Notes under the pieces: model-generated
What the model was told of the DNA's origin: nothing
The model's database searches: none
What the model saw: only the letters and a program-made list of their open reading frames with translations
Part shown: piece by piece, positions 2,168-56,415 of the stretch
Layout: each line of letters starts with the position of its first letter
Position numbering within the stretch: the first letter of the stretch is position 1
Translations under genes and position numbers: made by a program
Origin: an uncultured bacterium
GTDB taxonomy: Bacteria > Hydrothermota > UBA3072
DNA length: 64,000 nt
NCBI GenBank assembly: GCA_964523975.1
Contig: CAZGBM010000001.1
Span: 6,116-70,115, forward strand
Direction of reading: 5' to 3'

Positions 2168-2239
2168 AACATTACTTCCGTCATTATATTTTTAACCAGT
2201 AAACTTTTTTAAACATATTACATTTAGTCTCGTTTTTAT

Positions 2240-2505
2240 AGTAAATAAAATATCAAAATTTAAAAAGCAAAATGACAAATAAAAATGCAAAATTATCTTT
2301 AAATCCCCACCCAAAGCAACCCATTTTTTAACAACAAATTGCACAAATTTCACGAATAATTTTTTTTGTTTTTTCAACTCGAAACTCGCAACCCGAAACA
2401 ACAGTTAATATTTGTGTTATTCGTGTGATTCGTTGTTTCTATTTTTAATTCATTTTTGAATTTTAATCTGTCATTTTCCATTTTGATATTTGATTTTTGC
2501 ACTCC
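2240..2505. mobile_element. MITE-like internally deleted copy of the IVS-like element (two inverted arms plus internal modules)
   Basis: Arm 2243-2297 and inverted arm 2447-2502. Only an 11-codon remnant (MENDRLKFKNE...) of the four-helix-bundle ORF remains. The interior carries the shared modules cacccattttttaacaacaaattgcacaaatttcac and attcgtgtgattcgttgtttct. Confidence 0.55.
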
Positions 2506-2529
2506 AATAATTTAACCCTCCAAAATTCC

Positions 2530-3558
2530 TTAGTGTCTTCGTGTCTTAGTGGCTGTACCTTTATTTAAAAATTTAATCAGTTCTTTCATATCATCATAAA
2601 GCGGCGCGGTAAAAATCATCTTCTTTTTCTTCACAGGATGAGTAAATTCGATTAATGCGGCATGAAGCGCCTGCCTATCTATAATCCCCATTATCTTATC
2701 GAAAGTATCTTTATAGTCAAGCCCTATTTCCCTCAAAATTATTTTATCTCTGCCTCCATAATCCGGGTCACCAATCACAGGGTAACCAAAATGCGAAAGA
2801 TGAACTCTGATTTGATGTGTCCTTCCCGTTTCCAGCATAACTTTTAGTATAGAAGCAAACCCATACGAATGTAGAACTTCAAATCGCGTAAGCGAGTCGC
2901 GTGAGTTCAACGGGGTAACCGCCATAAGCTTTCTGTCAAAAGAATTCCTCCCTATAGGTGAACTTATCTCGCCCTCTTTCATCGGAGGCGTTCCCCAGAC
3001 CACAGCCAGGTAAATTTTCCTAACTTGCCTTTTCTGAAATTGGCTGGCAATCTTAGAATGAACCCTTTCGGTTTTCGCAAACACTATAACCCCCGTGGTA
3101 TCCTCATCAAGTCTATGTATAACTCCGGGTCTTGCAAGACTCGAACCTTCCGCAAGAGTAGAACAATGATGTAAAAGTGCGTTAACGAGCGTACCGTCGG
3201 AATTCCCTTTCGCGGGATGTACGACTATGCCTTTTTGTTTATTTAAAACGATTATATCCTTATCTTCATATAAAATCGAGATCGGTATTTCCTGAGGCTT
3301 TATCTCAAAAGGCACAACCGCCTCATAGACCGCTTCAATTACATCTCCCCTCTTTACCTTGTAGGACGGTTTGGAACTTTCACCATTTACAAGGATTTCT
3401 CTATCTTTTATTTTTTTCTTTATATTACTTCTACTAAAAGGAAGACTGGTTTTAGACAAGTATGTGTCAAGTCTTATATTTTCGCTTCTGACTTCTTCCC
3501 GCCATGTCTTGGTAACACCAGAATCGCCGTTTTTATTATTTTCCATAGAATCTACCAA
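2530..3558 (-). CDS. rluD: 23S rRNA pseudouridine synthase, RluA/RluD family with N-terminal S4 domain
   Basis: 342 aa; S4-like region followed by the HRLDEDTTGVIVFAKT catalytic motif. Confidence 0.85.
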   Translation of the reverse strand: MVDSMENNKNGDSGVTKTWREEVRSENIRLDTYLSKTSLPFSRSNIKKKIKDREILVNGESSKPSYKVKRGDVIEAVYEAVVPFEIKPQEIPISILYEDKDIIVLNKQKGIVVHPAKGNSDGTLVNALLHHCSTLAEGSSLARPGVIHRLDEDTTGVIVFAKTERVHSKIASQFQKRQVRKIYLAVVWGTPPMKEGEISSPIGRNSFDRKLMAVTPLNSRDSLTRFEVLHSYGFASILKVMLETGRTHQIRVHLSHFGYPVIGDPDYGGRDKIILREIGLDYKDTFDKIMGIIDRQALHAALIEFTHPVKKKKMIFTAPLYDDMKELIKFLNKGTATKTRRH

Positions 3559-3595
3559 AGATATTTAAACAATTGACTTAATTCCATAGAATATG

Positions 3596-3815
3596 AAATA
3601 TTAAAAATTAAAAAGCAAAATGACAAATTAAAATGCAAAAACTAAAAATAAAAGGACGCAGTTGCTCGCAGATAAAAAAAGATTTTTGATTTGTTACTTT
3701 TCCCAAGAACCAACTACTAACTAATAATATATGATTCGTTATTTCTTTGCTTTTTGAATCATTTTTGAATTTTGATTTGTATTTTTCCATTTTGATATTT
3801 GATTTTTACATTTTT
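3596..3815. mobile_element. MITE-like internally deleted copy of the IVS-like element
   Basis: Arm 3596-3650 and inverted arm 3752-3812. The internal 60-aa ORF (3608-3790, minus) starts MEKYKSKFKN like the intact gene and then degenerates. Confidence 0.55.
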
Positions 3816-3879
3816 ACGGATTTGTATTTCCAAGCTGTTTATTTATTACTGCTTGACCCTTCTTTAAATAGCTCAAACT

Positions 3880-4593
3880 TCACTTTACTCCGAGCGCTTC
3901 TTTTTGCCTGGCAATAAGATTTTTTATTCCTTCTCTACCGATTTCAATCAATTTGTCAAGTTCTTCTTTCCTGAAAGGTCTTCTTTCCGCAGTACCCTGA
4001 ACTTCGATTACCCCTCCTTCTTCGTCCATCACGAGATTAATATCGGCATCGGCACTAGAATCCTCTTCGAAATTAAGGTCAAGGAAAATCTCATCATTAA
4101 TAATACCTCCTGAAACAGCCGCAACCCAGCGTTTTAAAGGAACTTTTCTAATCTCTTTCATAGCAACCATCTGGCGAAGAAGCTCATAGACCGATACTAC
4201 TCCAGCAGTTATTGACGCCGCCCTTGTGCCTCCATCTGCCTGAATAACATCACAATCCACAATAATGGTTTTCTCGCCTAATAAATCCATATCGAACGCC
4301 TGTCTTACGGAACGGCCTATCAATCTCTGAATCTCATAGATTCTACCGGATAAGCCATCCCTTTCTCTGTTTTGTCTTGAGTTACAGCTTTTGGGTAACA
4401 TACCGTATTGCGCCGTTATCCAGCCCTGCCCAAAACCTTTAAGAAAAGAAGGTACCGAATCGTTAATAGTCGAGGAAACAAGAACAATCGTATTTCCCTG
4501 TTCTATCAAGACCGAAGCCGGAACCAGCTTAAGATAATTAACCTGTATTTCTACCGGACGTATTTTATTCTTTTCTCTTCTCTTCCTGGACAT
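3880..4593 (-). CDS. rph: Ribonuclease PH
   Basis: 237 aa; RPVEIQVNYLK...GSVLIEQGNT...IQADGGTR motifs typical of RNase PH. Confidence 0.9.
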   Translation of the reverse strand: MSRKRREKNKIRPVEIQVNYLKLVPASVLIEQGNTIVLVSSTINDSVPSFLKGFGQGWITAQYGMLPKSCNSRQNRERDGLSGRIYEIQRLIGRSVRQAFDMDLLGEKTIIVDCDVIQADGGTRAASITAGVVSVYELLRQMVAMKEIRKVPLKRWVAAVSGGIINDEIFLDLNFEEDSSADADINLVMDEEGGVIEVQGTAERRPFRKEELDKLIEIGREGIKNLIARQKEALGVK

Positions 4594-13142: not shown

Positions 13143-13189
13143 ACAATTTAGTATATTCTTTTTACTCCTTTGAGCAAGGGGGATGAAGA

Positions 13190-13400
13190 AAATCAAATAT
13201 CAAAAATCAAAATGACAAATAAAAATGTAAAATTATAAATCAAAACAAAAAAAGAGAAACAACGAATCACACAAATAGCACGAATAAAAACAAAAAAATT
13301 CTATTTTTTGTAAAAAATAACTATCGTTAATTCATTTGTGTAATTTGTGCTATTTGTTGTTAAAATAGGGGATGTTGGGGGATAAACAGAGAAATCTTTG
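13190..13400. repeat. Solo arm plus internal modules of the IVS-like repeat family
   Basis: Arm at 13190-13250; agaaacaacgaatcacacaaatagcacgaat and gtgtaatttgtgctatttgttgttaaaatagggg modules match the element at 2240-2505 in reverse orientation. Confidence 0.55.
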
Positions 13401-13419
13401 TGTTCTTTGTGGTTATAAC

Positions 13420-14481: not shown

Positions 14482-14699
14482 ATAACCTCCTGCTTTACAG
14501 TATTACCAATCAACTTTTTGTTCTTTTGCAAAAAAATATCTCATTTAGTTCTACCTTCCTTTCACGGTAAATAAAATATCAAAATTTAAAAAGCAAAATG
14601 ACAAATGAAAATGCAAAATTATCTCCTACCTTTCAGCGTTAAAACACTTGAAGCAAAAATTTTACTGATTTCATCCAATTCTCTTAAGAACCAACCAAC

Positions 14700-14990
14700 T
14701 TATTCTGGCATGGCTCTTTTAATATCTCCAAGCAGATTAATCCATAGTTTACTTTCATTAGTAGATTTAAGAGAATAATTGAAATAATTTGTAAAATCTC
14801 TCTTACTGCTTGCAGATTGACCTTCAACATAATTACCTAAGATACTTGTACCACTGCAAAGCAATTGATCTCCAAGTCTTTTAGACACATTATCTTTAGG
14901 TAAACCATCTAAAAACTCAATAAGCTTCAGGACAAAGTTGTACAACCTTTTTTTGTATTCATTTTTGAACTTTGATTTGTCATTTTCCAT
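14700..14990 (-). CDS. Four-helix-bundle protein (23S rRNA intervening-sequence protein family)
   Basis: 96 aa; family-typical length and composition; its start codon and first ~11 codons lie inside the dispersed 'arm' repeat. Confidence 0.65.
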   Translation of the reverse strand: MENDKSKFKNEYKKRLYNFVLKLIEFLDGLPKDNVSKRLGDQLLCSGTSILGNYVEGQSASSKRDFTNYFNYSLKSTNESKLWINLLGDIKRAMPE

Positions 14991-15035
14991 TTTGATATTT
15001 AATCTTTACATTTTAGCGGCTTTGCCACTTTATCA

Positions 15036-17788: not shown

Positions 17789-18096
17789 TTTTTTAACCCA
17801 CCTTTTATGTTTTTTACGTTATAAAAAAATAAACTATCCGATTATATTTTAATTTTTTTATTATAACAACGAATAATATTATAGCAAGAGAAAAAATTCT
17901 TTTTACTAGCCTGAGAATTTTAACCACAAAGTTATCAAAGAACCATAAAATGATAATGGTAAAGTGAGATATCAGATACCGGGTACCGGATACCAGAAAT
18001 TAGTTAGAAGGTTATCGGTCAATATATCAGTAAATCAGTGAATCGGTAAATTAGTAATAAAAAACAGCTACAGTATCTACATGTCCTACATGTAAA

Positions 18097-18335
18097 AATG
18101 GTGTGTGGGTTGGATTTTAAACCGCAAAATATCCTGTTTATCTTGTTAATCCCGTCTGATTGATTCTTCGAATCGGTTAAATAGTTGAATTGTCGAATGG
18201 TTGAATAGTAGCAACAAAAATTTTTTTATCCGTGACCATCCGTGTTAATCCGTGGCTAATTTCGGGGTTGTGGGTTGGGTTTTAAAGAACAAAAAATCTT
18301 GTGTTAATCTTGTGAAATCTCGTGATTAATTTTCC
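18097..18335. repeat. G-rich modular repeat region in the divergent intergenic region (two blocks)
   Basis: gtgtgtgggttggattttaaaccgcaaaatatcctgtttatcttgttaatcc and ccgtgttaatccgtggctaa...ggttgtgggttgggttttaaagaacaaaaaatcttgtgttaatcttgtg. Confidence 0.55.
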
Positions 18336-18397: not shown

Positions 18398-18637
18398 TTG
18401 AAGAGTCAGGCTGTAAATATTTCGTTTAAAAAGGATTTACTAAAGAAGATTGATGACATCGCTAAAGAAGAATCCCGTACCAGGTCTGAACTGGTACGTG
18501 AAGCGGCAAGAATTTACATTGAGAGAAAGGAGGAATGGAGTAAGATTTTTTCTTACGGGGATATTCTTACTCGAGAAAAGCAACTCTCCGAAGAAGACTT
18601 GAAGAAAGAAATAGAAACTTACAGAAAAGAGAAGTAA
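18398..18637 (+). CDS. Ribbon-helix-helix (CopG/VapB-like) antitoxin, TTG start
   Basis: 79 aa; N-terminal RHH pattern (SFKKDLLKKIDDIAKEESRTRSELVREAARIYI); 1-nt gap to the PIN gene. Confidence 0.7.
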   Translation: MKSQAVNISFKKDLLKKIDDIAKEESRTRSELVREAARIYIERKEEWSKIFSYGDILTREKQLSEEDLKKEIETYRKEK

Positions 18638-18638
18638 T

Positions 18639-19043
18639 TTGTTCAAAGTTGTTTTTGACACCAATGTTTTAATTTCCGCCATTCTATTTGGTGGTTATCC
18701 CAGAAAATGTTTCGAGCTTGTAATTGAAGGGAAAATAGAATTATATATTTCCGAAGAAATCATAGGTGAATTTGAGGGAGTTTTAAAACGAGAAAAATTT
18801 GGCGTCGCCAAAGAAAATTTGCATTATATAGTTTCTTCTCTTAATTCATTTGCAAATTTCGTAAAACCTGAAACAAAATTAAATATAGTAAAAAAAGACC
18901 CCGAAGACAATAAATTTGTTGAATGTGCAATAGCAGCAGAAGCTGATTTTATCATATCCGGAGATACTCATTTGCTCGAGCTTTCCAAAATTCGAAAAAT
19001 AAAGATATTAAATCCAGCCGATTTTTTAAAGCATTATTTTTAA
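18639..19043 (+). CDS. PIN-domain toxin (VapC-like)
   Basis: 134 aa; VVFDTNVLISAILFGG...CAIAAEADFIISGDTHLL, acidic residues characteristic of the PIN fold. Confidence 0.75.
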   Translation: MFKVVFDTNVLISAILFGGYPRKCFELVIEGKIELYISEEIIGEFEGVLKREKFGVAKENLHYIVSSLNSFANFVKPETKLNIVKKDPEDNKFVECAIAAEADFIISGDTHLLELSKIRKIKILNPADFLKHYF

Positions 19044-19049
19044 CTAAAG

Positions 19050-19262
19050 TGATTTTAGATGTTAGGAAGTTAGGAGGCTAAAACAGAAAATAAAAGATTG
19101 GGCTTAGTTGAGCTTTGTGCTCTCTGTGCCTCCGCGGTTATGAGAATTTTTTTTATTAGTGTGTATCCGTGTTAATCCGTGGCTAACTCAGTGGTTTTGG
19201 GTTGGGTTTCGAATAACAAGAAAATCCTTTTTAATCTGCGTCTATCTGTGTACGATTCTTTT
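19050..19262. repeat. G-rich modular repeat region
   Basis: gttaggaagttaggagg, ctttgtgctctctgtgcctccgcgg and gtgtatccgtgttaatccgtggctaactcagtggttttgggttgggtttcgaataacaag modules shared with other loci. Confidence 0.55.
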
Positions 19263-19265
19263 TAA

Positions 19266-19338
19266 ATTTTGCATTTTTATTTGTCATTTTGCTTTTTGAT
19301 ATTTGATTTTTACTTTTAAGCGGCTTTGCCGCTTATCT
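19266..19338. repeat. Solo arm of the IVS-like family plus GC hairpin aagcggctttgccgctt
   Basis: tttgtcattttgctttttgatatttgatttttac then a 7-bp stem/3-nt loop hairpin whose 3' end overlaps the TAA stop of the 782-aa gene. Confidence 0.55.
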
Positions 19339-21681
19339 GCTCTCAACAAATCTCACAATTGATGCCGTAAAAATGAGTAATATGACAAACATAAGAAGAG
19401 GGTAATATAAATAAATCCTTAAAGATAAACAGACGAGTAGAACTACAGTCACAATCGCAAGAAGTCCACCGGGTCTTAAAGCAAGTTTGAACCATTTCGA
19501 TAACTTAACAAGCTCCTTCCATAGAGCCTCGAACAGAGGAATAAAAATCCGTCTCTTACGGATAAACACATAAATCAAAATCAAAACCAGTAGAATAACC
19601 AGAGCTTTTATTATTAAATCATTCACATAATTGAAGCCTAAAAATAAAGCTTCTTCTCTTTCTACAATCTTTTTCTCAAAAGAATACTTATTACCGGAAA
19701 CCGGAATATTGACTCTGACGGACAGTACCCCGGCTTCTCCTGTAGCGAATACCTTTGCCGATTTATCGAGTATTGCTTGAGGCATTGAAGGTGCAAGAAT
19801 TTCTTTTGTTGCCGAAATTCCTCTCATTTCTTCATCCTTAGCCTCCTCTTCAAAACCTTCTGTTTCCGTAGGCATAGCAGTCGGCATAACAACAGGAATA
19901 ATTTCTTCAATCTTCGGTTTGAGATTACCACTAAATTTCATATAAGTATAATCTACAGGCAAATATAGACTCCACTCGGCTTTGTTGATTAGAATATCCG
20001 TAGTCGGGAAGCAATGCTTCTTCTTACCCAATAGATTAAAACCTCCCATTTTTTCGGTGTAAATAAGTTCGATATCAAAAGGCGTAAGACTTCCATCCCC
20101 TCCCCTTTCCGAGCGGACAAGCGGAATCAGCACTTTACCATCATCATCTTTAGAAGCCTTTTCTCTTTTGCCGTTAACATAAACACTCCAGATACTCACG
20201 TCTTGCGGTAAACTTACCTTCAGGAACTGGTCCCACAGATTTTGCATCGTAAAGGTAACCTGATAAACCAGTTTGCCGTCTTCCGTAAGGAGGGTAATTC
20301 CCTTCGCCAAATCGATAAAAGAAGTAAGAGCCTCTTCTTTTTTGTATTTGGTAATACGAACAACCATACCAAAGGGATGTTTTACATATCTGAAAGCGAA
20401 AAGAATCGGTCTGGCAGAAAGATTGCTGAGCTGGTAAGGAATCTTCTGAAAATCAATTCTTTCAAGGTTATTAAATTCCTGAACTTCAGCTCCGGCATCG
20501 CTTTTTACTTCTCCCGCCACATACCCAGATTCTCTCACTGCTCCCAGAACTTCAAACCCTTCGAAATCCGCAATTATCGTTTCTTCCGGCAATAATTTTT
20601 CCGATTTTACAGTCACCACCTTCGTTCCTTCAAACATATATTCGAAAGACACATCAAGAAGCTGCCTTCCTTTTTCCTCCCTGCTACTCCACCCCGATAC
20701 CCCATCGCCGCTTACCTCGATAACCTGATAACCCTCAGGAACGATAAGCGAAAGCAAATTGATTTTATTCTGCATTACGTTCAACTCGACCATCGTGGTA
20801 ACGGTAATCGCGTCTGCCTCAATAGAAAGAAGATTGAAAACCTCAGAGTATATCCTGGCCGAACCTCTCACCACTTTCCCTTCCTCTTTCTTCCAGGAAA
20901 TACTTACATAAGAAGCAGGAGAAAGATAGCTTCTTATGACGGTATGGCCTTTTGTCTCTACGGTTTTCACTTCCTGGGCATTCCCGATATTAACCTCAAG
21001 ATAGGGCTTGGGGATATCAAGAGAAAGGTAAGTAATCGGTGTTTGTGGAATACTGAAATTCAAACCCGGACTCCCATTATCCGGCGACGAATTAAGGGAA
21101 AACTTTATACCGACCGAATGCCGACCAACCTCACTGGTAGACAAATAATGCCACCCTCCCTCGGTTATTATAGAAGCAGGCTTTCCGTCAAGTTTAACTT
21201 CCGATATAGCAAGATTTTCCCCGAAAAGAGGAATCTTCAAATAAGATTTCTGATGTTTATCGAAAATCTCCAGGTCGAGGAAAACGGTAAAATTCGTACT
21301 CTGACTTCCCATAACACCATTGTACGACGCTCTCGTAATAATATAATCCGCGGGAGGCTTAAGCTCCCCTCCCACGGGAGCTATCATCCTATCCACGAGT
21401 TTTTTAAATTCCTCTCTCGTAAGTACCACTTCCCCACCCTCGACCCTGTACTCGGGCTGGTAAGTGGCTCCTGTCTGTTCCATCAGTTTAGCGAACTCAT
21501 CCCAGGAAAGTTTTATCTCATCAACGTCAAGTTTCAAAAGAGAACGGAATTCATTCCAATCTATTGTTACTTTTGAATCCTTCGAATCATCAGCACGAAG
21601 GGCGAACCCAAAAGAGGTGCATAACAGAATCAAAGATAAGCTAATTAAAAAAATATGATTTCCTGTTCTTTTCTTTGTCAT
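19333..21681 (-). CDS. Large secreted protein with C-terminal triple-TM anchor, paralog A, function unknown
   Basis: 782 aa; signal peptide, duplicated (I/L)SW(D/E)EF..L motifs near the N-terminus, three C-terminal TM helices; paralogous to the upstream gene. Confidence 0.6.
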   Translation of the reverse strand: MTKKRTGNHIFLISLSLILLCTSFGFALRADDSKDSKVTIDWNEFRSLLKLDVDEIKLSWDEFAKLMEQTGATYQPEYRVEGGEVVLTREEFKKLVDRMIAPVGGELKPPADYIITRASYNGVMGSQSTNFTVFLDLEIFDKHQKSYLKIPLFGENLAISEVKLDGKPASIITEGGWHYLSTSEVGRHSVGIKFSLNSSPDNGSPGLNFSIPQTPITYLSLDIPKPYLEVNIGNAQEVKTVETKGHTVIRSYLSPASYVSISWKKEEGKVVRGSARIYSEVFNLLSIEADAITVTTMVELNVMQNKINLLSLIVPEGYQVIEVSGDGVSGWSSREEKGRQLLDVSFEYMFEGTKVVTVKSEKLLPEETIIADFEGFEVLGAVRESGYVAGEVKSDAGAEVQEFNNLERIDFQKIPYQLSNLSARPILFAFRYVKHPFGMVVRITKYKKEEALTSFIDLAKGITLLTEDGKLVYQVTFTMQNLWDQFLKVSLPQDVSIWSVYVNGKREKASKDDDGKVLIPLVRSERGGDGSLTPFDIELIYTEKMGGFNLLGKKKHCFPTTDILINKAEWSLYLPVDYTYMKFSGNLKPKIEEIIPVVMPTAMPTETEGFEEEAKDEEMRGISATKEILAPSMPQAILDKSAKVFATGEAGVLSVRVNIPVSGNKYSFEKKIVEREEALFLGFNYVNDLIIKALVILLVLILIYVFIRKRRIFIPLFEALWKELVKLSKWFKLALRPGGLLAIVTVVLLVCLSLRIYLYYPLLMFVILLIFTASIVRFVESR

Positions 21682-21691
21682 TTTGATGCTC

Positions 21692-24187
21692 CTATTTCGC
21701 CCTTGGGTTTTTTGTTTTTTTTGTTTTCTTCTTTCTCCTGGCTGGAGATTTAACCTTCCGTGCGGGTATCAAGTCGGGTCTTATCCAGGCAATCAAAAAG
21801 ACGAGAACAAAAATAACAAAAAGAAATTTCGAAAGGAAGAAGAAAATGAATGCCCCCAGAACGAGGAGACTCTTTATGCCGGCAGGAGTCTTTAATCTCA
21901 TCCAGAAGTCTTTATTGGAATAAAGACGATTTTTAAATTCAAGAAAGAGGACTCTTATTTTAATTCTAAGACGATAAATAAGGTAAAGAACGATAAGAAC
22001 TATAAGAATCTTGATTAAAGAATAAATCCATCCTCTGGTATATTGAAAAGTCAAGAACAACTGTTCATCTTCTATCACGGTTTTCGCAAAACGGTAAAGT
22101 TGTCCCGAGGTAGGAACTTCAATCTTAAAGAGAGCTACACTGGTTACTCCGCTTTCCCTGTCTCTTTTTAGATTTTCCGCAAAGCCGATTTCCTGCCTGA
22201 CCTGGTTCAAGAAATCAGCCTGCTCATTAGCCGAACTCAACCTGAAATTGCTCTTTAACTTACTCTGTGTTTGTTGTATTTTTTTATCTTCGATTTGCTT
22301 CGGCTCTTCCCAACTTTGAAGAGCTTGTTCGTATCCGCGAACCTCCTCATAGGTAAAAACTCTGCTTCCTCCGAACAAAGGACGAATCCCGGTGGCGATG
22401 TCTTCTTTTTCGACATTTCCTCCGAAATGGACGTAACGATATTCTAATGGCAGGTAACAGGACCATAGCATCTTACTTATCACTACATCAGCCTTGGGAA
22501 ACAATATAGTTTTCGAGCCGACAAGCGGCAATGAATTTTCCTTGTAATAAAAGAGAAATTCGACATCAAAGGATTCTATACTTTCACCCGATAAGCCTGA
22601 ACGGACAAGAGGTATCATAAATTTTCCTTCGTTGTTTTTGGAAGGAATTTCTCTTTTGCCATCAACATAAAGACTCCATATCTCAGCATCGGCGGGCAAG
22701 CTCAACTCCAGAAATTGCTTACCGGTATTACGCATAGTGTAAATAACCCTGCTTATAACCTTACCTTCCGGAAGTAAAACCGACATAACACTGGCATTAT
22801 CAATAACGGTATTGACCATTGGAAGTTCTTCGTGCTTCGTAACTTTCAAAGTCAGCGAGAACGGATGTCTTAAATATCGCAGTCCCAGGATTAAAGGCCT
22901 CGTGGACATATTCACCAGATCTAAAGGCAATTCCTGTATATCAACAACATCGATGTCTTTATTCCCGACAATCTCTGCTTCAGCCGCACTTTTCTTTTCG
23001 ATTCCGACAAAACCGGTTTCCCTGACGGACCCGAGAACTTCAAAACCATTGAAGTCTATCTCGTTACTCTTTTCCGTAAAGATCTTTTCAACTACTACAG
23101 TAAATACTACTGTACCTTCTTTTTCTCCTCCGAAAGGAACGGTTAAAACTTCTTTACCTTCAACTTCTTCCGTACTCCAGTCTCTTATTTCTTCGTAGTT
23201 TTGTCCCCTAACATATAAAACGCTATAGCCACGAGGAACAGATACTTTAATACCGGAAATCGAATTTTGCAGGACATCAAGTTTGAATCTTGCAGTAACC
23301 TGCAAAGCATTGTCCAGAACGGAAAGCAAATTCATAACCTCCGTATAAATTTTTGCGGGAACTTTCTTCTTCTCTTTCACGATAGTCCGGTGAACCTTTA
23401 AGGAAATATAAGAGGTTGTTGAAAGAACCGACCTGACACTTATATAGCCACCCCTGTTCAAAACGGTAATATATTTAGCCTCCGGTATCTCAACTTTGGC
23501 GTCAGGCACGGGAATATCAATATTAAATAACGTAATTGCGGTTTGTGGAATAGTAATACTCAAAACATCAGGACCTTTATCAAGTTCAGTTTTGACGGAG
23601 AATGAGAGCGTTACCTTATGCCGACCCAGTTTATCTGTTGCAAGGACATACCAGCCGTTTTCAGCCATCACTAAAGCAGGGTTACCATCTAACTCGATAT
23701 TTCTGAGCGCTACTCCCTGCGGTATAAGCTTAATCTTCGGATAATCTGTTCTACCTGTTTTGAATATTTCCAGGTCAAATGTGACGTTGAATGTGGTACT
23801 ATTCTGCTCCATAACACCGTTATATTCAGCTCTGGTTATAATATAATCACCTGGAGGAATAACCGGAGAAATATCCGGCTTCTTCATTTTATCAAGCAAT
23901 TCTTTAAACTGCTCCCTGCTCAAAACCACCATACCATTTTGTATACTGTATTCTATCTTGACCTCACTGCCGGTCTGTGCCAAAAGTTTTTTAAACTCAT
24001 CCCAGGAAAGCTTAATCTCGTCTGCGTCAATCTTTAAAAGTTCTTTGAATTCTTCCCAGCTTATTCTTACTTCGCTCGATTCTTTCTTGGGTTCAGCTTC
24101 CTCAGCATAAAGAGGTAACGCCGATAAGAGAGAAAAAAACAACAGAAAAACAGATGCAACATTTGTTAAACTCCTGAACTTTATCAT
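21692..24187 (-). CDS. Large secreted protein with C-terminal TM anchor and basic tail, paralog B, function unknown
   Basis: 831 aa; same architecture; shared blocks include ISWEEFKELLKIDADEIKLSWDEF, PLVRS...FD(I/V)E(L/F), YLP(V/L)(D/E)Y.Y. Lys/Arg-rich cytoplasmic tail. Confidence 0.6.
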   Translation of the reverse strand: MIKFRSLTNVASVFLLFFSLLSALPLYAEEAEPKKESSEVRISWEEFKELLKIDADEIKLSWDEFKKLLAQTGSEVKIEYSIQNGMVVLSREQFKELLDKMKKPDISPVIPPGDYIITRAEYNGVMEQNSTTFNVTFDLEIFKTGRTDYPKIKLIPQGVALRNIELDGNPALVMAENGWYVLATDKLGRHKVTLSFSVKTELDKGPDVLSITIPQTAITLFNIDIPVPDAKVEIPEAKYITVLNRGGYISVRSVLSTTSYISLKVHRTIVKEKKKVPAKIYTEVMNLLSVLDNALQVTARFKLDVLQNSISGIKVSVPRGYSVLYVRGQNYEEIRDWSTEEVEGKEVLTVPFGGEKEGTVVFTVVVEKIFTEKSNEIDFNGFEVLGSVRETGFVGIEKKSAAEAEIVGNKDIDVVDIQELPLDLVNMSTRPLILGLRYLRHPFSLTLKVTKHEELPMVNTVIDNASVMSVLLPEGKVISRVIYTMRNTGKQFLELSLPADAEIWSLYVDGKREIPSKNNEGKFMIPLVRSGLSGESIESFDVEFLFYYKENSLPLVGSKTILFPKADVVISKMLWSCYLPLEYRYVHFGGNVEKEDIATGIRPLFGGSRVFTYEEVRGYEQALQSWEEPKQIEDKKIQQTQSKLKSNFRLSSANEQADFLNQVRQEIGFAENLKRDRESGVTSVALFKIEVPTSGQLYRFAKTVIEDEQLFLTFQYTRGWIYSLIKILIVLIVLYLIYRLRIKIRVLFLEFKNRLYSNKDFWMRLKTPAGIKSLLVLGAFIFFFLSKFLFVIFVLVFLIAWIRPDLIPARKVKSPARRKKKTKKTKNPRAK

Positions 24188-31490: not shown

Positions 31491-31756
31491 GTTATTAGTG
31501 AGTGGGTGAGTTGGTTAAAAAACGGACCAACCGACCCACAGGCCAACGATTTAAAATCTCTTTGTCCTCTGTGTCTCTGTGTGAAAATAATTGGGTGTTG
31601 TGTGGAGGGTTTTTTAACAACAATAATGTTTTTTCTTTGTGTTCTTTGCGGCTTTGTGTGAGAATAACTTGGGGTGGTGGGTTGGGTTTTAAACAACAAA
31701 ATATCTTTTTGTTTTTTCTCTGCGGCCTTTGCGCCTCTGCGGTGAAATATTTTTTT
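31491..31756. repeat. G-rich modular tandem repeat (about 2.5 units of ~80 bp)
   Basis: Units of ctttgtgt(c/t)ctctgtgtgagaataa plus ttggggtggtgggttgggttttaaacaacaaaata. Confidence 0.6.
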
Positions 31757-32340: not shown

Positions 32341-35300
32341 ATGAAAATTTTATGTAAGAAAGAGGTGATATTTCTTTTCTTTTTCGCATTAATTGCCTCA
32401 GCCGGCGTCATACAAAAAGAATTAACTTTTGATAAAAACGACATTTCTTTTGCCAAAATTGACAAGTACGACTTTATAAGATTAAAAGGATGCGAGTCGA
32501 CTGTAGAGACAGGGGCTCCTTCTCTTCCGAGAGCATCTTTTTCTCTTTTAATTCCTCAGGGTGCGGAGGTTATAGATGTTGAGGTTATTTCCGTCGATAA
32601 AGAAGTAATTAGCGGAGAATATGATATTTATCCAACTCAACATCCTCAGCCTTTCATAAAAGGTAAAGTCTTCCCATTTGTTGAACCTGACAAGAATATT
32701 TACACTCAGGCTACCCCATATCCCGAAAAAATTATCGAGTCTTCTCACACCGGCTCAATGAGCGGCTATAGACTTGCAAGTTTACTGATTTATCCAATAC
32801 AATATATACCTAAAGATAAGCAGTTGATTTTCTATTCGAGAATAAAGTTCAGGGTTACATACAAAGAGAACGTACGTTCGTTGAATACGAAAACAGAGAA
32901 ACAAAAAATGATATTTGAAGAAAGAGTCAAAAAATTAGTCCTCAATCCCGAAGATATCGGAATGTCCGAGCCTTCCGTCGGACTTAGCGGAAGTCTGGCA
33001 TTACTTTCGGATACGGTGGAATATGTGATAGTAACCACATCTTCGCTCAAAGAACCTTTCCAGGAACTTGCGGACTGGAAAACGAAGAAAGGGATTCCTG
33101 CGAGGGTTGTAACTCTTGATTCCATCTATGCGAATTATTCAGGTGTAGATAATGCCGAAAAGGTAAGGAATTTCATAATCGATGCTAATTCATCCTGGGG
33201 AACAATCTGGGTTCTTCTCGGCGGGCAATGCGACTATGAATGGGGACAGGAAATCGTTCCGAGAAGGAATGTCTGGTATGTAACCTCAGGTGGTGGAAAT
33301 TATAACGATGAAGATACCATTCCATCGGACCTTTATTTCTCCGACCTTGACGGGAACTGGAATGCGGACGGAGATGGTGTATTTGGTGAATCAACCGACG
33401 ACGTTGACTTCTATTCGGACGTGTTCGTGGGAAGAGCTCCTGTTCGAACTTTAGCTCAGGCAGAAATTTTTGTTAATAAGGTTCTCACTTACGAAAAAAA
33501 TCCTCCCAGTGGTTATCAAAAAAAGATACTTCTGCCTGCAGCCTATCTATGGCCATTTATATACGATGAGAGGACCTCACAGGAGGCAATTTCCAATATA
33601 GTTCCTTCGGACTGGCAGGTTACAAAGATGTACGAGCGGGACGGAAATTTAATCCACTCGACTTTTGTTGATTCGGTTCGCGCGGGATTCGGGTTCGCTC
33701 ATCTCATAGGACACGGCAACGAGTATGGTGTTTATACTTATTACGCCGATGCTTATATTAATTCCGATGACATGGATGCTCTTGGTAATGGCGATTTGCT
33801 TGGTATTCATAACTCTATAGCCTGTATGTCCGGCGGGCTTGACCTTGTGCCTGACGGAGACTGCTTTGCAGAACATTATCTGACTCCAAGTACAGGCGGA
33901 AGTTTCTCCATTATGAATTCAAGGTATGGCTGGGGACAACCCCCAAATATGGGACCTTCGGAGCATATCGACACCTGTTTCTACCATGAAATATTCAGAG
34001 AAAATTATCTTTATCATGACCATATTGGTGTAGCACACGCCTTTTCGAAAGACGGCTACGTACCTCAAGTTACCTGGTCATCTCTCTGGCCGTGGTGCAT
34101 TTATGAGTTAAATCTATTCGGAGACCCGGAAATGCCTTTATGGACGGATACTCCTGCTAAATTAACCGTAACTCATGACTTCGTAATACCCGTTGGCGGC
34201 AGCAGCTTTGCTGTGAATGTTACAGATGGTGGCTCAGGTGTAGAAGACGCGCTTGTTTGTTTATATAAAGAGGGAGAAGTATATGAAAGAGGATACACCG
34301 ATGCTTCAGGTAATCTTACCTTAACTCTATCTCCGCCTCCCGCTTCTCTCGGTTTAATGTGCTGTACGGTTACAAAAAGCAATTACCTTCCCTACGAAGA
34401 TAGTGTGGATGTTATTTCTCCTTTTGGTCCCTGGGTTATTTTTGATAGTTATTCAGTATTGGACATATCCGGAAATAATGATGGCAATGTTGACCCAGGA
34501 GAGAATATTAAGTTGTGGCTGATAGTACATAATGTAGGTCTTGATACTGCTTATAGTATCACGGGTATTTTGCGAACGACTGATTCTTATGTCATCATTG
34601 CTGACTCAATGGAAGGATTCGGAGATATCCCGCCCGATTCATTCTTGAGCAGCTTAGAGGACTTTGACTTTGATGTGGCACTGGAATGTCCGGCAAACCA
34701 TGTTATTACTTTTGAGCTCGTTGTTAGAGATATAAACGATAGTACCTGGGTTAGTTGTTTTTCTGTGCCTATATCAACGCCAGATATAACCGTTTCTGCC
34801 GACACCATAATTTTCGATACAGTATTTGTAGATTATTCTGATACATTGGAACTTCTGGTAAATAATATTGGTAGAGATACCTTAGTTATAAGTGATATTA
34901 CATCTGACAATATCGATTATTCCATTGATATTACTGGCTTTAATTTACCCCCAAATGAAAGTCAACCAGTAAGGGTGATATTTGCTCCGGCTTCTGAAGG
35001 TAGCTCCACTGGTAATCTGACTGTTGCGAGTAACGATTTAGATGAACCCAGCTTAACAGTCTTCTTACGGGGAGAAGGTTTAGAGCCGCCTGATATATCT
35101 TTTTCACCCGATTCCGTGAGTGATAGTTTATTTGCAGGTGAAACGACTACCCATACTTTAACGATTTATAACACGGGAGAAAGTGAACTTAATTTTGATA
35201 TATCGATTATGGAATTACTATCAACAACAAAAGCACCAAATATAAGTTTTAAAGTCACCGAATTCAAAAGCAATAAAATAGCAATACCTGACGAGAATTC

Positions 35301-38300
35301 GGGAACGGTAAATGAGTTTGGAGCGAAATTTTCCAAGCGGATTTACAAGAGTAGCGCGCCTACTTTAGCTTTAGAAAATATACTTGTTATGGAAAATGGT
35401 CCGGGTTCATATCATTATAATACAGCTCTGGATAATCTTGGACTATCAAGGACACTTGTAACTTACTGGGACGAATTGCATATGGAACTCAACAGTGGAA
35501 CCCAGTGGGAGCTGGTTATTGTTAATTCCTATAGCAATATACCTTCGAACGAAATACTTGATTTGCTCAATGATTATCAAGCAGAAGGTGGACTTTTAAT
35601 ATATGCCGATTGGGCTCTTTACAACTATTCTTCGCACTCTTTACTTACAAGTTTAGGTATCGGTTTCGTTTCGGATTTTACAACGCCTTTAAACTTCTAT
35701 GCCGTCAATACCGGGCATGTACTTTTTAATAATCCGAATGATATAGACAGTCTATACTGGACAGATAACCAGTATAACAGAGATGCTGAGATTGTTGACG
35801 TTCTTCCTGGTGCGACTCAACTGGCTTATCTCGAAGGTTATCCTGACAATGGAGCAATAGTGCTTAATGCGAGAAAGAACTGTCTGTTCAATGCTTTTCA
35901 GTCAATGAACTTTAACGTAGATGATGATGGCGATGAAAAACTCGACATTGTTGAACTTATAGAGAATGAGATTAGGTTCCTTTCGATGCGCTGGCTTTCG
36001 GTTGATCCATTCTCTGGCACCATTCCATCAGCCGATAGTGTACTTGTAGAAATTACATTTGACGCTACCAACCTTTATGGAGGGAACTACTTTGCAGATA
36101 TTATCATTACCAGTAATGACCCGGATGAGCCGAGAGTTAGGGTTCCTGCTCATTTGCATGTAACTGGGGTGCCTGATATTTCTGTTTCGGAAGACACCTT
36201 AAATTACGGTATTGTTTTCACTGGTTATTCTGCAACTGACACATTAATTATTGAAAATGTCGGGACCGATTCACTGAGTGTTAATGACATCTCGTCTGAT
36301 AATCCTGATTTTACTGTAGATGTAACTAATTTTACCTTGGACCCCGGAAAAACGCATGGTATTGTGGTAACCTTTACGCCCGGCTCACTGGGAATGGTTA
36401 CGGGAACCTTGACCATCGATTGCGATGATCCGGATGAGCCAACTATAGATATTGCCTTACAGGGGGAATGTTTAGAACCACCGGACATATCGGTTTCGCC
36501 TGATTCTTTGAGAGATAGTCTGTTTACGGGCGAGACTTCAACCCATACTTTAACTATTTATAATACTGGCTTAAGTGAACTGATTTTTGATATTTTGATT
36601 GAAGGAGAGGGCGAGGCGGAACCTCTGGTATCTCTGAATACAAGAATGTCTATAGAGGACAAGAAGATAAATACTACGGGACCTCAAAAAAGTATAAGCG
36701 GTGAAACTGCTGCCGTAAATCAGTCAAATAGTCCTGTTCAATTATACAAATCTTCAAAAACAAGGGGAACGCAGGATATCGCGATACTTGGACCGGATGG
36801 CTCCGACAGTAATTTATATCTTGATGATATAGCTCGGTATTTGATAAACTCGGGGCAATTTTCTTCAGTAACAACTATAAATGGATACCTGGTTACCCCT
36901 ACCTTAGCTGAACTGAAAACATTTGATGCAGTAGGTGCCTTTGGTTGGTATGGCTGGAATGACGCAGTTGCTGTTGGTGATATACTGGCGGATTATGTTG
37001 ATGCAGGAGGTAATCTTTTTATTGCCTTTGCAGCAAATGGAACCGGAGGCGATTGGATGATTGAAGGTCGGTTTGATACTGAAAATTATTGGTTGATTTC
37101 TCCATATTCTTATAATGGAGGAACTTCCTATCATATGGGTAACGTTTATGAACCAGATCATCCCATTATGGATGGGGTAAGTACGTTAATTTCAAGATCA
37201 AAATTGAACAGCGGAACTTCTGTTAGTCCCGGCACAACTTTACTGGCGGAGTTCCTAGATGGAACACCGCTTGCCGCTATTAATAAAGTAGGATATAGCC
37301 GACGTGTTGATATAAGTTTTCCGTTTTTCACCTCCGCTGTAAGTAATTGGGGAATAGATACGACCTCGGACACAAAACTGTTGATAATCAATGCACTTGA
37401 TTGGGTTATGGGTTCTGACTGGCTTTCCGAAAATCCCACCACAGACACTGTTCCCCCAGGTGATAGCGTAAAGATAGAAATAACTTTTGACGCAACTGGC
37501 CTATACGGTGGTGATTATTTTTCAAACATCATTATTGCCAGTAACGACCCGGACGAGCCGGGAGTTGTTGTTCCCGCTCACTTACATGTAACAGGAGTGC
37601 CCGATATAGATGTTTCAGAAGATACTTTAGATTACGGTATTGTTTTCGCTGGTTCTTCTGTTACCGATACGTTAATCATTTCAAATAAAGGAACCGATAC
37701 GCTAACAATAAGTAATATTGCAACTGATTACTATAATTTTATTATTGATACTACAAATTTTACCTTAAATCCCAAAGAATCTCAGAAAGTTCTGATAACA
37801 TTTACACCAATCTCACTGGGAACGATTATAAGAGTCTTAAGGATTTATTGCGATGACCCGGATGAATCAACTGTAACATTATTTCTGCGAGGGGAATGCT
37901 TAGAACCACCGGATATATCGGTTTCGCCTAATTCTTTGAATGATACTCTATCCGAAGGTGAAATATCCAGACATATTTTGGCGATTTATAATACAGGTGC
38001 AAGTGATTTGAATTTTAACATTACGATTGAGAAATCGGATTCATCTGGGGTAAAATCGGCAAAAAATAGCAAACAGCCTATAGCCTTATCTTCCTCTGTT
38101 ATTCGTGAGTCTTCTATATTAAGCCTCGAAGAGACGGCCGAACATACACCTTTTGATTTCCACAGTACTCCTCGTCAATTTGCTCCACCAATGATATTTA
38201 GAGATAATTTTGAAGATGGCAATTATGACGGCTGGCTTAGCGGAGAAGGCTCAGGTACAAAGGAAGTTACGAATTCTACAGCCGCTAATGGAACAGTATA

Positions 38301-39237
38301 TAGTTACCATGAGTACAATTCTCCGGACGGATACCATTTCAGCGGAATTTATCGCCAACTTGGCGCTGTACAACCTGGTTATATTAGTTTTTATATCCGT
38401 TCCGGGTCTACTACTACACATGATGCCTATTTTGTACTACAAAATAGCACTGGTTATGACGCAATCTGGTTTTTCGCAAAAGGAGGCGGATATCTTTATG
38501 TCAATTCAAATGTTGGTGGAGACGAAACGTATGCATATACCGCCGAAACATGGTATCATATCGAGTTTAAAAATATTGATTTCATTACAAAAACTTTTGA
38601 CTACTATGTCAATGAAAACATGGTAAAGGCAAGTATTCCCTTCCGAGATGCTCAGTATATTGAAGACTTTGACCATCTGGATATTTACAATTTTAGCGGT
38701 GGTTCGCAGGCTTGGTGGGATGAGATTTTAATTTTGACAGGAGAGTTCCCTACCTGGGTCGTGGTTGATACCCTTTCGGGTACAATTTCATCAGGTGACA
38801 GTGTTAATATAGAGGTTACTTTTGATGCGACAGGTTTAGACATCGGCTATTATTTCGCAGAAATCATTATTGAAAGTAACGATCCGGATAATCTCCAAGT
38901 AATTGTTCCAGCTCATTTGCATGTACTTGGCAGCGGGATAGAAGAAAGGGCGATTCCGAAAGTCTTCTCTATTTCTCAAAACTATCCTAACCCATTCAAT
39001 CGCCAAACAACGATAATGTACGGATGCCCGAAAAGTTCCAAAGTTGAGATTCGAATTTTCGACATTACGGGAAGGTTGGTAGCAACTCTTGTGAATAGAG
39101 AAGTCGAAGCCGGATATCACGAAGTAATCTGGAACGGATGCACCGATTCCGGCAATAAAGTTGTAGGTGGTATATATTTCTATAAAATGAAGACAAGTGA
39201 CTTTATGGCAACTAAGAAGATGATTCTTTTACGGTAA
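32341..39237 (+). CDS. Giant (2298 aa) secreted gingipain-like C25 cysteine peptidase with ThuA-like, choice-of-anchor-D/ASH-like and LamG-like domains and a T9SS C-terminal sorting domain
   Basis: Signal peptide; C25 propeptide; catalytic His (GHGNEYG) and Cys (NSIACMSGG) about 37 aa apart. Two flavodoxin/ThuA-like segments. At least four repeats ending ...DPDEP..VPAHLHVTG and three CLEPPDISVSPDSL...IYNTG repeats. Concanavalin-like region. C-terminus NYPNPFN...IFDITGRLV...GIYFYKM matches the Por/T9SS CTD. Confidence 0.8.
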   Translation: MKILCKKEVIFLFFFALIASAGVIQKELTFDKNDISFAKIDKYDFIRLKGCESTVETGAPSLPRASFSLLIPQGAEVIDVEVISVDKEVISGEYDIYPTQHPQPFIKGKVFPFVEPDKNIYTQATPYPEKIIESSHTGSMSGYRLASLLIYPIQYIPKDKQLIFYSRIKFRVTYKENVRSLNTKTEKQKMIFEERVKKLVLNPEDIGMSEPSVGLSGSLALLSDTVEYVIVTTSSLKEPFQELADWKTKKGIPARVVTLDSIYANYSGVDNAEKVRNFIIDANSSWGTIWVLLGGQCDYEWGQEIVPRRNVWYVTSGGGNYNDEDTIPSDLYFSDLDGNWNADGDGVFGESTDDVDFYSDVFVGRAPVRTLAQAEIFVNKVLTYEKNPPSGYQKKILLPAAYLWPFIYDERTSQEAISNIVPSDWQVTKMYERDGNLIHSTFVDSVRAGFGFAHLIGHGNEYGVYTYYADAYINSDDMDALGNGDLLGIHNSIACMSGGLDLVPDGDCFAEHYLTPSTGGSFSIMNSRYGWGQPPNMGPSEHIDTCFYHEIFRENYLYHDHIGVAHAFSKDGYVPQVTWSSLWPWCIYELNLFGDPEMPLWTDTPAKLTVTHDFVIPVGGSSFAVNVTDGGSGVEDALVCLYKEGEVYERGYTDASGNLTLTLSPPPASLGLMCCTVTKSNYLPYEDSVDVISPFGPWVIFDSYSVLDISGNNDGNVDPGENIKLWLIVHNVGLDTAYSITGILRTTDSYVIIADSMEGFGDIPPDSFLSSLEDFDFDVALECPANHVITFELVVRDINDSTWVSCFSVPISTPDITVSADTIIFDTVFVDYSDTLELLVNNIGRDTLVISDITSDNIDYSIDITGFNLPPNESQPVRVIFAPASEGSSTGNLTVASNDLDEPSLTVFLRGEGLEPPDISFSPDSVSDSLFAGETTTHTLTIYNTGESELNFDISIMELLSTTKAPNISFKVTEFKSNKIAIPDENSGTVNEFGAKFSKRIYKSSAPTLALENILVMENGPGSYHYNTALDNLGLSRTLVTYWDELHMELNSGTQWELVIVNSYSNIPSNEILDLLNDYQAEGGLLIYADWALYNYSSHSLLTSLGIGFVSDFTTPLNFYAVNTGHVLFNNPNDIDSLYWTDNQYNRDAEIVDVLPGATQLAYLEGYPDNGAIVLNARKNCLFNAFQSMNFNVDDDGDEKLDIVELIENEIRFLSMRWLSVDPFSGTIPSADSVLVEITFDATNLYGGNYFADIIITSNDPDEPRVRVPAHLHVTGVPDISVSEDTLNYGIVFTGYSATDTLIIENVGTDSLSVNDISSDNPDFTVDVTNFTLDPGKTHGIVVTFTPGSLGMVTGTLTIDCDDPDEPTIDIALQGECLEPPDISVSPDSLRDSLFTGETSTHTLTIYNTGLSELIFDILIEGEGEAEPLVSLNTRMSIEDKKINTTGPQKSISGETAAVNQSNSPVQLYKSSKTRGTQDIAILGPDGSDSNLYLDDIARYLINSGQFSSVTTINGYLVTPTLAELKTFDAVGAFGWYGWNDAVAVGDILADYVDAGGNLFIAFAANGTGGDWMIEGRFDTENYWLISPYSYNGGTSYHMGNVYEPDHPIMDGVSTLISRSKLNSGTSVSPGTTLLAEFLDGTPLAAINKVGYSRRVDISFPFFTSAVSNWGIDTTSDTKLLIINALDWVMGSDWLSENPTTDTVPPGDSVKIEITFDATGLYGGDYFSNIIIASNDPDEPGVVVPAHLHVTGVPDIDVSEDTLDYGIVFAGSSVTDTLIISNKGTDTLTISNIATDYYNFIIDTTNFTLNPKESQKVLITFTPISLGTIIRVLRIYCDDPDESTVTLFLRGECLEPPDISVSPNSLNDTLSEGEISRHILAIYNTGASDLNFNITIEKSDSSGVKSAKNSKQPIALSSSVIRESSILSLEETAEHTPFDFHSTPRQFAPPMIFRDNFEDGNYDGWLSGEGSGTKEVTNSTAANGTVYSYHEYNSPDGYHFSGIYRQLGAVQPGYISFYIRSGSTTTHDAYFVLQNSTGYDAIWFFAKGGGYLYVNSNVGGDETYAYTAETWYHIEFKNIDFITKTFDYYVNENMVKASIPFRDAQYIEDFDHLDIYNFSGGSQAWWDEILILTGEFPTWVVVDTLSGTISSGDSVNIEVTFDATGLDIGYYFAEIIIESNDPDNLQVIVPAHLHVLGSGIEERAIPKVFSISQNYPNPFNRQTTIMYGCPKSSKVEIRIFDITGRLVATLVNREVEAGYHEVIWNGCTDSGNKVVGGIYFYKMKTSDFMATKKMILLR

Positions 39238-48468: not shown

Positions 48469-48690
48469 TTAACTGAAATTTAACCACGAGATTACACAAG
48501 ATTAACACCAGATTTTTTTGTTGTTTAAAACCCACCCCCATCCCAAATATTTCGACAGGATTAACAAGATAAACAGGATATATTTTTTTTATTTTAACCC
48601 TCCAAACTTCCCAACCCCTAACTTCCTAACTGATATTTCACACAGAGTCCACAGAGAAAAAAAACAATATTTTTTGTTTTTATTGACTCG
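48469..48690. repeat. G-rich modular repeat region (reverse orientation)
   Basis: The reverse complement reads gggatgggggtgggttttaaacaacaaaaaaatctggtgttaatcttgtg and cagttaggaagttaggggttggg, matching loci at 18100-18335 and 19050-19260. Confidence 0.55.
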
Positions 48691-56292: not shown

Positions 56293-56415
56293 TCATTTAG
56301 TCTGTTGGCCTGTAGAAAAACTACACCAATAAATTTTGATTCGTGTTATTCGCCTGCCCCGTAAAGAAGAATGAGTGTATCGGGGTGCAATTCGTTGTTT
56401 CTTCGTTTCTTTGAA

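Follow-up and report, generated by a model that had tools for sequence, protein, structure and literature searches.

A probable non-coding member of a copy-paste cassette family in the rluD–topA spacer of an uncultured bacterium

The spacer between rluD and topA in an uncultured bacterium (contig CAZGBM010000001.1, positions 6,116 to 70,115 of the forward strand) holds a short element with inverted arms, here called element A. The whole 64,000-nucleotide stretch that was analyzed is referred to as the window; it is AT-rich (36.7% GC), and its minus strand carries topA (11-2167), rluD (2530-3546) and rph (3880-4593), with a 362-bp spacer between the first two. Element A is probably a non-autonomous member, lacking an open reading frame (ORF), of a family of palindromic cassettes that spreads by copy-paste without target-site duplication. 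It would have arrived in an already ORF-less form, termed S3, and would fold when co-transcribed with its neighbors. The window belongs to candidate division WOR-3, the genomes nearest to it are WOR-3 metagenome-assembled genomes, and related WOR-3 DNA served for comparison; the loci compared are labelled L002 to L135, and the letters A to G denote copies within the window.

The two arms of element A (2248-2303 and 2443-2498) are complementary at 75% over 56 nt and are separated by 139 nt. This corresponds to 42 of 56 positions, compared with 28.9 ± 1.4 (maximum 35) in 200 shuffles of the region. A whole-window repeat search located arm starts in one orientation at four positions (2243, 3596, 13189 and 14569) and in the other at seven (2447, 3760, 14950, 19260, 56416, 56918 and 58421). 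A profile built from these 11 copies, and used in nhmmer searches of the window and its relatives, recovers both arms of element A, the 3' (L) arm with E=1.2e-9 and the 5' (R) arm with E=6e-13. The inverted arms enclosing about 150 bp that the original prediction, made from the letters of the DNA, had placed between topA and rluD are therefore real, and their coordinates were right within a few bases. Pairwise alignment also bears out the proposed homology with an ORF-bearing copy: the L arm is 92-94% identical to that of copy D (14563-14628) and the R arm 80% identical to its counterpart (14953-15021). Read on the minus strand from an ATG, 2481..2449 encodes MENDRLKFKNE, the first 11 residues of intact homologues (L062, L052), after which the residues are unrelated, just as had been proposed. 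A Pfam scan of the remnant at 2374-2502 on the minus strand, where these 11 codons are retained, gave no match.

Between the arms, element A is composed of modules that had been predicted to recur next to other arm copies, and these recurrences were found at 13249-13381 and 58309-58415. Positions 2319-2363 are 96% identical to 58309-58353, while 2310-2362 and 2404-2446 match, in inverted orientation, 13329-13381 (79%) and 13249-13291 (86%), respectively. Degenerate heptamer arrays build the arms, and arrays of 9-nt and 7-nt units build the interior modules, in a region of 26% GC. In the sense (minus) direction the order is R arm, AGAAACAACGAATCACACGAATAACACAAAT, loop, TTATTCGTGAAATTTGTGCAATTTGTTGTT, G-rich block, L arm and a degenerate tail running to the topA ATG, through which homology with other copies reaches the start of topA. 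Within the element, TTATTCGTGAAATTTGTGCAATTTGTTGTT is the inverted partner of AGAAACAACGAATCACACGAATAACACAAAT. The motif of the second module occurs 20 times in the window plus loci, and this module pairs with the first in the minimum free energy (MFE) fold.

The arms define a large family. A metagenome scan with a 25-nt L-arm pattern, followed by a profile search over 1.2 Mb, yielded 207 arm matches, which resolve into 81 pairs and 45 solo arms; the L-arm set was collected by exact matching to that pattern, so apparent L-arm conservation is inflated. The family occupies about 85 site clusters. All 81 pairs are convergent and in the same order, with an R and an L arm in nearly every one of them (a few are untypable). 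The R arm carries the ATG, and the L arm is one heptamer longer. Most pairs are short, with about 57 of 130-200 bp, about 16 of 220-350 bp and eight of 454-561 bp, and all other copies examined sit between protein-coding genes.

A complete element measures about 457 bp from arm end to arm end. Its sole gene is a 123-aa four-helix-bundle ORF of PF05635, the protein family encoded in 23S rRNA intervening sequences (IVSs), and this ORF fills the inter-arm space exactly; in full-length copies it begins inside the R arm, which holds the first ~12 codons, and its stop codon lies directly before the L arm. Intact 123-aa ORFs are present in five long copies, in at least four distinct gene contexts, and an intact copy matches PDB 2RLD at E=1.5e-12. 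Pairwise dN/dS among the ORFs ranges from 0.04 to 0.17 at dS of 0.3-1.9, values which indicate strong purifying selection on the ORF, a functional protein and old copies. Within 75% identity of this protein there are more than 120 clusters (90% identity), and among the 120 homologues listed all are ~123 aa long with PF05635 as their single domain. Just 5' of the R arm, every full-length copy has a GCGGCAAAGCCGC hairpin followed by TAAAATG, a combination that occurs in the window only beside arms (4/4, with 0.3 expected by chance). On the 3' side of the L arm, a tail of ~90 nt is conserved in most copies and ends in a Shine-Dalgarno sequence at the start of the next gene. In many copies the repeated unit consequently outreaches the arms, from the 5' GC hairpin to the 3' tail at the next ribosome-binding site.

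The ORF-less copies form subfamilies of their own. S3 elements (257-346 bp) carry a second internal inverted repeat and are found at no fewer than eight unrelated sites. One of them, L066, lies at a different site from element A and is 83% identical to it over its entire length; the same architecture is seen in L087, L092, L083, L046 and L076a/b and, without the L arm, in elements C and G of the window. Two further ORF-less subfamilies, S1 (~190 bp) and S2 (~175-183 bp), each occupy a dozen or more unrelated sites. Element A had been interpreted as a simple internal deletion of an ORF-bearing parent; this is contradicted by its interior, whose modules differ from those of the parent, include a separate inverted repeat and are shared by the S3 copies.

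Comparison of orthologous junctions reveals filled and empty alleles of the family. All relatives keep the gene order from lolE to topA (~13 kb). About nine distinct genomes with rph-rluD-topA synteny and flank identities of 77-87% have an rluD–topA spacer of only 80-150 bp, free of arms. The junction between parB and an M23 gene is 17-34 bp long in six genomes, the window among them. It carries an S1 element in L116, L071 and L005 and is empty in the close relatives with which these were compared, namely L003 (flanks 94-95% identical), L010 (89-92%) and L006, respectively. Together with rph-rluD, this makes three junctions with both alleles. The insertions replace 10-20 nt of native spacer. 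At the 3' end of parB (L005 7620-7640, L116 5130-5150, L008 7885-7910), the cassette also rewrites the last four codons, from KGKK and stop to TRQSR and a stop after the hairpin, and an arm-less hairpin-like remnant at this place in L008 may be the footprint of a loss.

Two further observations concern the spread of the cassettes. The S3 copies L076a (2614-2915, plus strand) and L076b (3788-4093, minus strand) lie 0.9 kb apart in inverted orientation and are 95-98% identical; their flanks are unrelated and the homology stops at the outer arm ends. Of all copies, this pair is the likeliest to stem from a recent duplication. A cassette between leuC and leuD (L135, 2977-3422) resides on contig JAFGGE010000138.1, labelled Sedimentisphaerales; it encodes a protein of 76% identity between recognizable arms, and its GC content is 33%, versus 53-59% in the contig flanks. 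This suggests either transfer between phyla or a mis-binned contig. Further cassettes with similarly related proteins and recognizable arms lie between genes for a histidine kinase and its sigma-54 regulator and between two HHH_3 genes. Near-identical copies at unrelated sites, filled and empty alleles and hosts of very different GC support, at the level of comparative sequence analysis, the copy-paste spread of the family that had been suspected for it.

The predicted sense-strand RNA of element A closes as a single long hairpin, with arm paired to arm and inner module to inner module (MFE -62.1 kcal/mol, z=-3.75). The RNA of an S1 element folds likewise (z=-2.4). Arm pairing is also predicted for a full-length copy, by the MFE as well as the centroid structure, and its 5' GC hairpin folds on its own. 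As in an IVS, a terminal stem closes the element in the predicted MFE and centroid folds of element A, S1 and full-length copies. The orientation of the cassettes is biased. Among the seven distinct sites with full-length elements, six are co-directional with both neighboring genes and the seventh, L117, with the downstream gene only. For paired elements, nearly all of them ORF-less, distinct sites between co-directional genes comprise 26 co-directional and 10 antisense cases. No intrinsic terminator was predicted in or beside elements A and D. Given the orientation bias and the lack of a predicted terminator around it, element A is likely to be co-transcribed with rluD and topA. The L arm contains a promoter-like TTGTCA-18-GATATT directed toward the downstream gene; it is consistent across copies and weak (9/12), in an L-arm sample biased by the search pattern. 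The R arm is one heptamer short, which makes the corresponding spacing too short for a promoter. A sigma-70 promoter in the tail (TTGCAA...TAATAC) was also considered and dropped, as its spacing is 18-22 nt and inconsistent between copies.

These features are compatible with the following scenario. Element A (2168/2241-2508, sense minus) would have entered the rluD–topA spacer by insertion or replacement in the lineage of the window. It would have come already ORF-less, as arms plus a second internal inverted repeat, and not by decay of a full-length copy in place, with the family spreading through a copy-paste process that leaves no target-site duplication. Once inserted, the cassette would be co-transcribed with the flanking genes, and the arms (~55 nt of AAAATNN heptamers) and the inner repeat would fold into a long imperfect hairpin. 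Judging from rRNA intervening sequences and Correia elements, such a hairpin is probably cut by RNase III. For the gene downstream, a promoter or ribosome-binding site may be restored by the L arm and tail, and the 5' hairpin and 3' tail could limit the damage to neighboring cistrons. What the comparison establishes is homology, family structure, insertion polymorphism, purifying selection on the ORF and the predicted fold; RNA processing, promoter activity and the mechanism of mobility are inferred.

Several points weigh against this scenario. The arms show no covariation, as pairing with the own partner (0.724) equals that with the partners of other copies (0.729; permutation p=0.95), and the mismatches between R and L are conserved, together with a fixed asymmetry of one heptamer (7 nt). 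Selection for an RNA stem is therefore not demonstrated; instead, each arm seems to be constrained as a sequence, whether by protein binding, promoter function, coding or recent common descent, and not merely as half of a stem. No consistent target-site duplication or defined target was found at L116/L003, L071/L010, L005/L006, L076a/b or element A. An ATAAAG repeat at L116 and D was examined as a possible duplication and rejected, as it belongs to the 5' hairpin stem and to the conserved tail. At the rluD–topA junction, the closest relative available has a flank identity of only ~86%, and the spacers of the relatives hold other repeat modules. The empty sites sought at this junction were thus found in part: about nine relatives are free of arms, but none presents a clean empty site. 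Exact-protein look-ups for topA and the long rluD ORF returned no match, and for rluD read from an internal ATG the only match was an identical sequence on the JGI metagenome contig Ga0315555_1003075, so that no strain-level variant of the junction was found. Furthermore, the rph-rluD site shows vertical inheritance and decay in place, which means that not every short copy is a transposition product, and gene conversion between pre-existing copies could mimic recent transposition.

A bolder proposal goes beyond the spread of element A. The arms together with the four-helix-bundle gene may constitute an autonomous mobile element of a kind not described before, ~460 bp long and making no duplication, its spread being mediated or licensed by the PF05635 protein together with host RNase III or recombination functions, with ORF-less copies riding in trans. 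We regard this as a tentative possibility, doubtful at present. Relatives of the PF05635 protein of the Avd type bind nucleic acid.

Among the rival explanations, the one that survives best regards the cassette as a host regulatory or structural module of intergenic regions (a promoter, terminator, mRNA-stabilizing hairpin or set of protein-binding heptamers) that is selected, shuffled by recombination or gene conversion, and not selfish. It would account for the conservation of arm sequences, mismatches included, across copies whose ORFs have a dS of 0.5-1.9, for the conserved TTGTCA-18-GATATT of the L arm and the tail ending in a Shine-Dalgarno sequence before the next gene, and for the orientation bias; the spacers of this clade are also mosaics of several other repeat modules. 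However, the cassettes are sporadic at orthologous junctions of housekeeping operons, where many relatives manage with spacers of 17-30 bp, at 10 of 36 sites they run antisense to the flanking genes, and a GC-discordant copy exists in a distant host. In addition, the exact 25-nt pattern used to collect L arms inflates their apparent conservation. We therefore judge this explanation unlikely.

According to another view, a full-length four-helix-bundle cassette at rluD–topA lost its ORF by deletion or rearrangement, and the short form never moved. Such a history is written in the adjacent spacer: element B keeps both ends of the ORF, its orthologues in L005, L006 and L008 and what is left of it in L009 and L010 show progressive erosion, and this copy decayed in place. 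Copy D represents a fresh pseudogene, and the ORF of the Coxiella IVS is likewise in reductive evolution. The interior of element A, in contrast, lacks any remnant of the ORF and presents the S3 modules in the order found at eight or more other sites (L066, at 83%, as well as C and G). A structure common to so many sites makes parallel decay implausible, and the roughly nine relatives mentioned above have no trace of arms at rluD–topA. Decay in place is thus very unlikely for element A, while the S3 form of A and the decay of B indicate that both routes to short copies exist.

The original prediction had seen in element A the classic signature of a miniature inverted-repeat transposable element (MITE). 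A classical MITE would here be a deletion derivative of a DNA transposon, mobilized in trans by a DDE transposase encoded elsewhere in the genome, with the arms as its terminal inverted repeats. Part of that signature is indeed present: long inverted arms bound a small non-coding unit, many copies are dispersed with insertion-site polymorphism, and the homology of L076a/b ends exactly at the arm termini. Yet target-site duplications were seen at none of the compared junctions, the arms are not symmetric, and R and L follow one fixed order in every pair. The ~50 window ORFs scanned, which include one HTH_17 ORF (55447-55956), yielded no transposase or integrase domain, although a transposase could lie elsewhere in the genome. 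Nor was a transposase-encoding relative with matching ends found; the ORF-bearing relatives, all of ~123 aa and single-domain among the 120 homologues listed, encode only the PF05635 protein. Without a duplication or a transposase-bearing parent, strict MITE status is unsupported, and the label holds only loosely; a classical MITE is highly improbable here. An integron attC site, an IS200/IS605-type element and a retron were considered on anatomy only and set aside, as no integrase, TnpA or reverse transcriptase is present and the ends are true inverted repeats. Lastly, a chance inverted match in an AT-rich, low-complexity spacer, for which the 26% GC and the A/T-rich heptamers could be invoked, is already refuted by the family evidence, given the shuffle maximum of 35, profile E-values of 1e-9 to 1e-13 and the presence of the same arms around intact ORFs in independent assemblies.

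Element A as an ORF-less member of a spreading cassette family thus remains the preferred reading, and the family can be placed among known systems. In anatomy, the closest are the ORF-containing 23S rRNA intervening sequences, known from Leptospira and Coxiella burnetii (PMC4990558; Ralph & McClelland 1993 as cited there). The IVS of C. burnetii is 428 nt long, contains an S23p ORF preceded by heptamer repeats before its ATG, and is excised by RNase III (PMC4990558). The full-length cassettes share with these sequences a size of ~430-460 nt, a single PF05635 four-helix-bundle ORF, and terminal inverted repeats predicted to close the element as a long stem. They also share heptamer repeats just upstream of or around the start codon, the copy number of which varies by whole heptamers, an ORF prone to reductive decay, and a long-suspected mobility. 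They differ in location, lying between protein-coding genes and not in helix 25 or 45 of 23S rRNA, and in having many ORF-less derivatives as well as additional 5' hairpin and 3' tail modules. Scans of the window with Rfam (gathering thresholds) and for tRNAs gave no match, and no rRNA was found.

In behavior, the closest systems are bacterial MITE-like repeats such as Correia, ERIC, RUP and BOX. As transcripts, the Correia/NEMIS elements of Neisseria, the enterobacterial ERIC/IRU and the pneumococcal RUP and BOX form folded structures; RNase III cleaves Correia hairpins, which can also contain promoters, and BOX is modular. The ORF-less cassettes resemble them as non-coding, intergenic, dispersed units of 100-300 bp that are bounded by inverted repeats, vary in size by internal deletions or insertions and would, as these repeats often are, be co-transcribed. 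Insertion of Correia elements duplicates a TA, and RUP is associated with an IS630-type transposase, whereas neither a duplication nor a transposase relative was found for the cassette family. Its arms, moreover, are far longer (~55-60 nt), asymmetric, and overlap the start of a gene that does not encode a transposase. The cassette ORF is also a member of PF05635/TIGR02436, alongside PDB 2RLD and Avd, the accessory protein of diversity-generating retroelements. Unlike in those retroelements, no reverse transcriptase and no template or variable repeats occur near the cassette, which is therefore not one of them; its neighbors are housekeeping genes, and no reverse transcriptase domain was detected in the scanned window ORFs. 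Literature searches on the protein family and on IVS-like elements outside rRNA, in an incomplete library, turned up no account of IVS-type cassettes that sit in operon spacers and have ORF-less derivatives.

Table 1. Parts of element A and other copies of the cassette family in the window.
Feature	Positions	Strand	Remarks
5' (R) arm of A	2444-2508	-	Ancestral ATG 2481-2479 plus 11 codons; supported by nhmmer, identity to copy D and N-terminus match
Interior module 1	2410-2440	-	9-nt array TATTCGTGT x2.8; sense AGAAACAACGAATCACACGAATAACACAAAT; 5' half of internal inverted repeat
Central loop	2360-2409	-	T-run plus AACTCGA x3.4 heptamer array; homologous loop in L066
Interior module 2	2323-2359	-	ATTTTTTAACAACAAATTGCACAAATTTCACGAATAA on plus strand; 3' half of internal inverted repeat; S3 signature
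G-rich block	2305-2322	-	GGGTTGCTTTGGGTGGGG on sense strand, just inside L arm; position conserved in S1 and S3
3' (L) arm of A	2241-2303	-	Heptamers CAAAATG x5.9 (Tandem Repeats Finder period 7); promoter-like TTGTCA-18-GATATT toward topA
Degenerate 3' tail	2168-2240	-	Between L arm and topA start; homologous to tails of D, L005 and L006 elements
Element B, rph-rluD spacer	3584-3820	-	Internally deleted four-helix-bundle cassette; ~13 N-terminal and ~25 C-terminal codons kept
Element C, S3-type composite	13179-13385	+	Chimeric single arm, no L arm; antisense to flanking genes
Element D, full-length cassette	14563-15021	-	ORF 14619-14990 with in-frame TAA 14700-14702; 5' hairpin 15016-15028
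Element E, solo chimeric arm plus GCGGCAAAGCCGC hairpin	19261-19332	-	S2-type interior remnants 19205-19260
Element F1, solo R-type arm plus hairpin	56410-56486	-	Profile match, hairpin
Element F2, solo R-type arm	56909-56975	-	Profile match
Element G, S3-type composite	58298-58494	-	R arm, both interior modules, hairpin variant; without L arm

The remaining copies in the window illustrate various states of the cassette (Table 1). Copy D holds the only four-helix-bundle gene of the window. Its ORF piece at 14700-14990 on the minus strand matches PF05635, truncated, with E=5e-13 and 49.5 bits against a cut-off of 33.8. The in-frame TAA stands where five intact homologues have CAA (Gln97), and the frame continues for 26 codons to the normal stop, which points to a recent pseudogene. 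The arms at 13179-13240 and 19261-19325 are chimeric, R-like in their outer and L-like in their inner part, and in L009 (9735-9960) an interior module is inverted; both observations hint at recombination or gene conversion between inverted arms. The excisionase-like HTH_17 ORF is followed by small unannotated ORFs at 56080-56292 and 56543-56842, which are separated by the solo arm F1, with F2 after the second of them, and the segment 55447-57000 may be a small foreign island. A gene pair for a ribbon-helix-helix antitoxin and a PIN-domain toxin (18398-19043) lies directly upstream of solo arm E.

The spacers of the window also contain a second repeat system, independent of the arms, which consists of tandem 8-9-nt xTTxGTGx units, a G-rich block and TTTTAAACAACAAAAT. 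It is found at 18079-18334, 19100-19237, 31558-31745, 48475-48566, 50722-51020 and 13385-13410, often just upstream of strong TTGACA/TATAAT promoters, and part of it forms the interior of A, C and G. The 3' codons of rluD are an octamer array, CTTAGTGT x2.9, at window positions 2529-2556. In L002, L003 and L006, an inverted copy of this array lies just upstream of topA, which would allow the entire spacer to fold into a hairpin; in the window this inverted partner has given way to element A and its tail. The spacers of L007, L008 and L009 and the rluD–topA spacers of L004 and L005 hold other palindromic modules, CATTGCGAGGAGC...GACGAAGCAATC, and AGCCAAxAGCxAAAGGC arrays. By this comparison, the spacers of the clade appear to turn over between several repeat families. 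Elsewhere in the window, a 6.9-kb ORF (32341-39237) has internal repeats of ~1.4 kb with 70-79% identity (35064-38930), and the genes at 19333-21681 and 21692-24187 are paralogues without a Pfam match.

Where ORF-containing IVSs come from, whether they move and what their four-helix-bundle protein does are questions that date back to the early 1990s (discussed in PMC4990558). Comparison across this cassette family speaks for the mobility of IVS-type four-helix-bundle cassettes, and the family has something that the rRNA copies lack, namely dozens of independent insertions in operon spacers. With filled and empty alleles, intact copies under selection, ORF-less subfamilies and a GC-discordant copy, mobility, target choice and the role of the protein become directly testable. 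For genome annotation, such spacers should be treated as repeat insertions, which can rewrite the 3' codons of the upstream gene and the ribosome-binding site of the downstream one. If the arms and the four-helix-bundle gene were indeed an autonomous element, the 23S rRNA intervening sequences would be tied to a wider group of elements that colonize operon spacers across phyla, and the S23p/IVS protein family would gain its first function.

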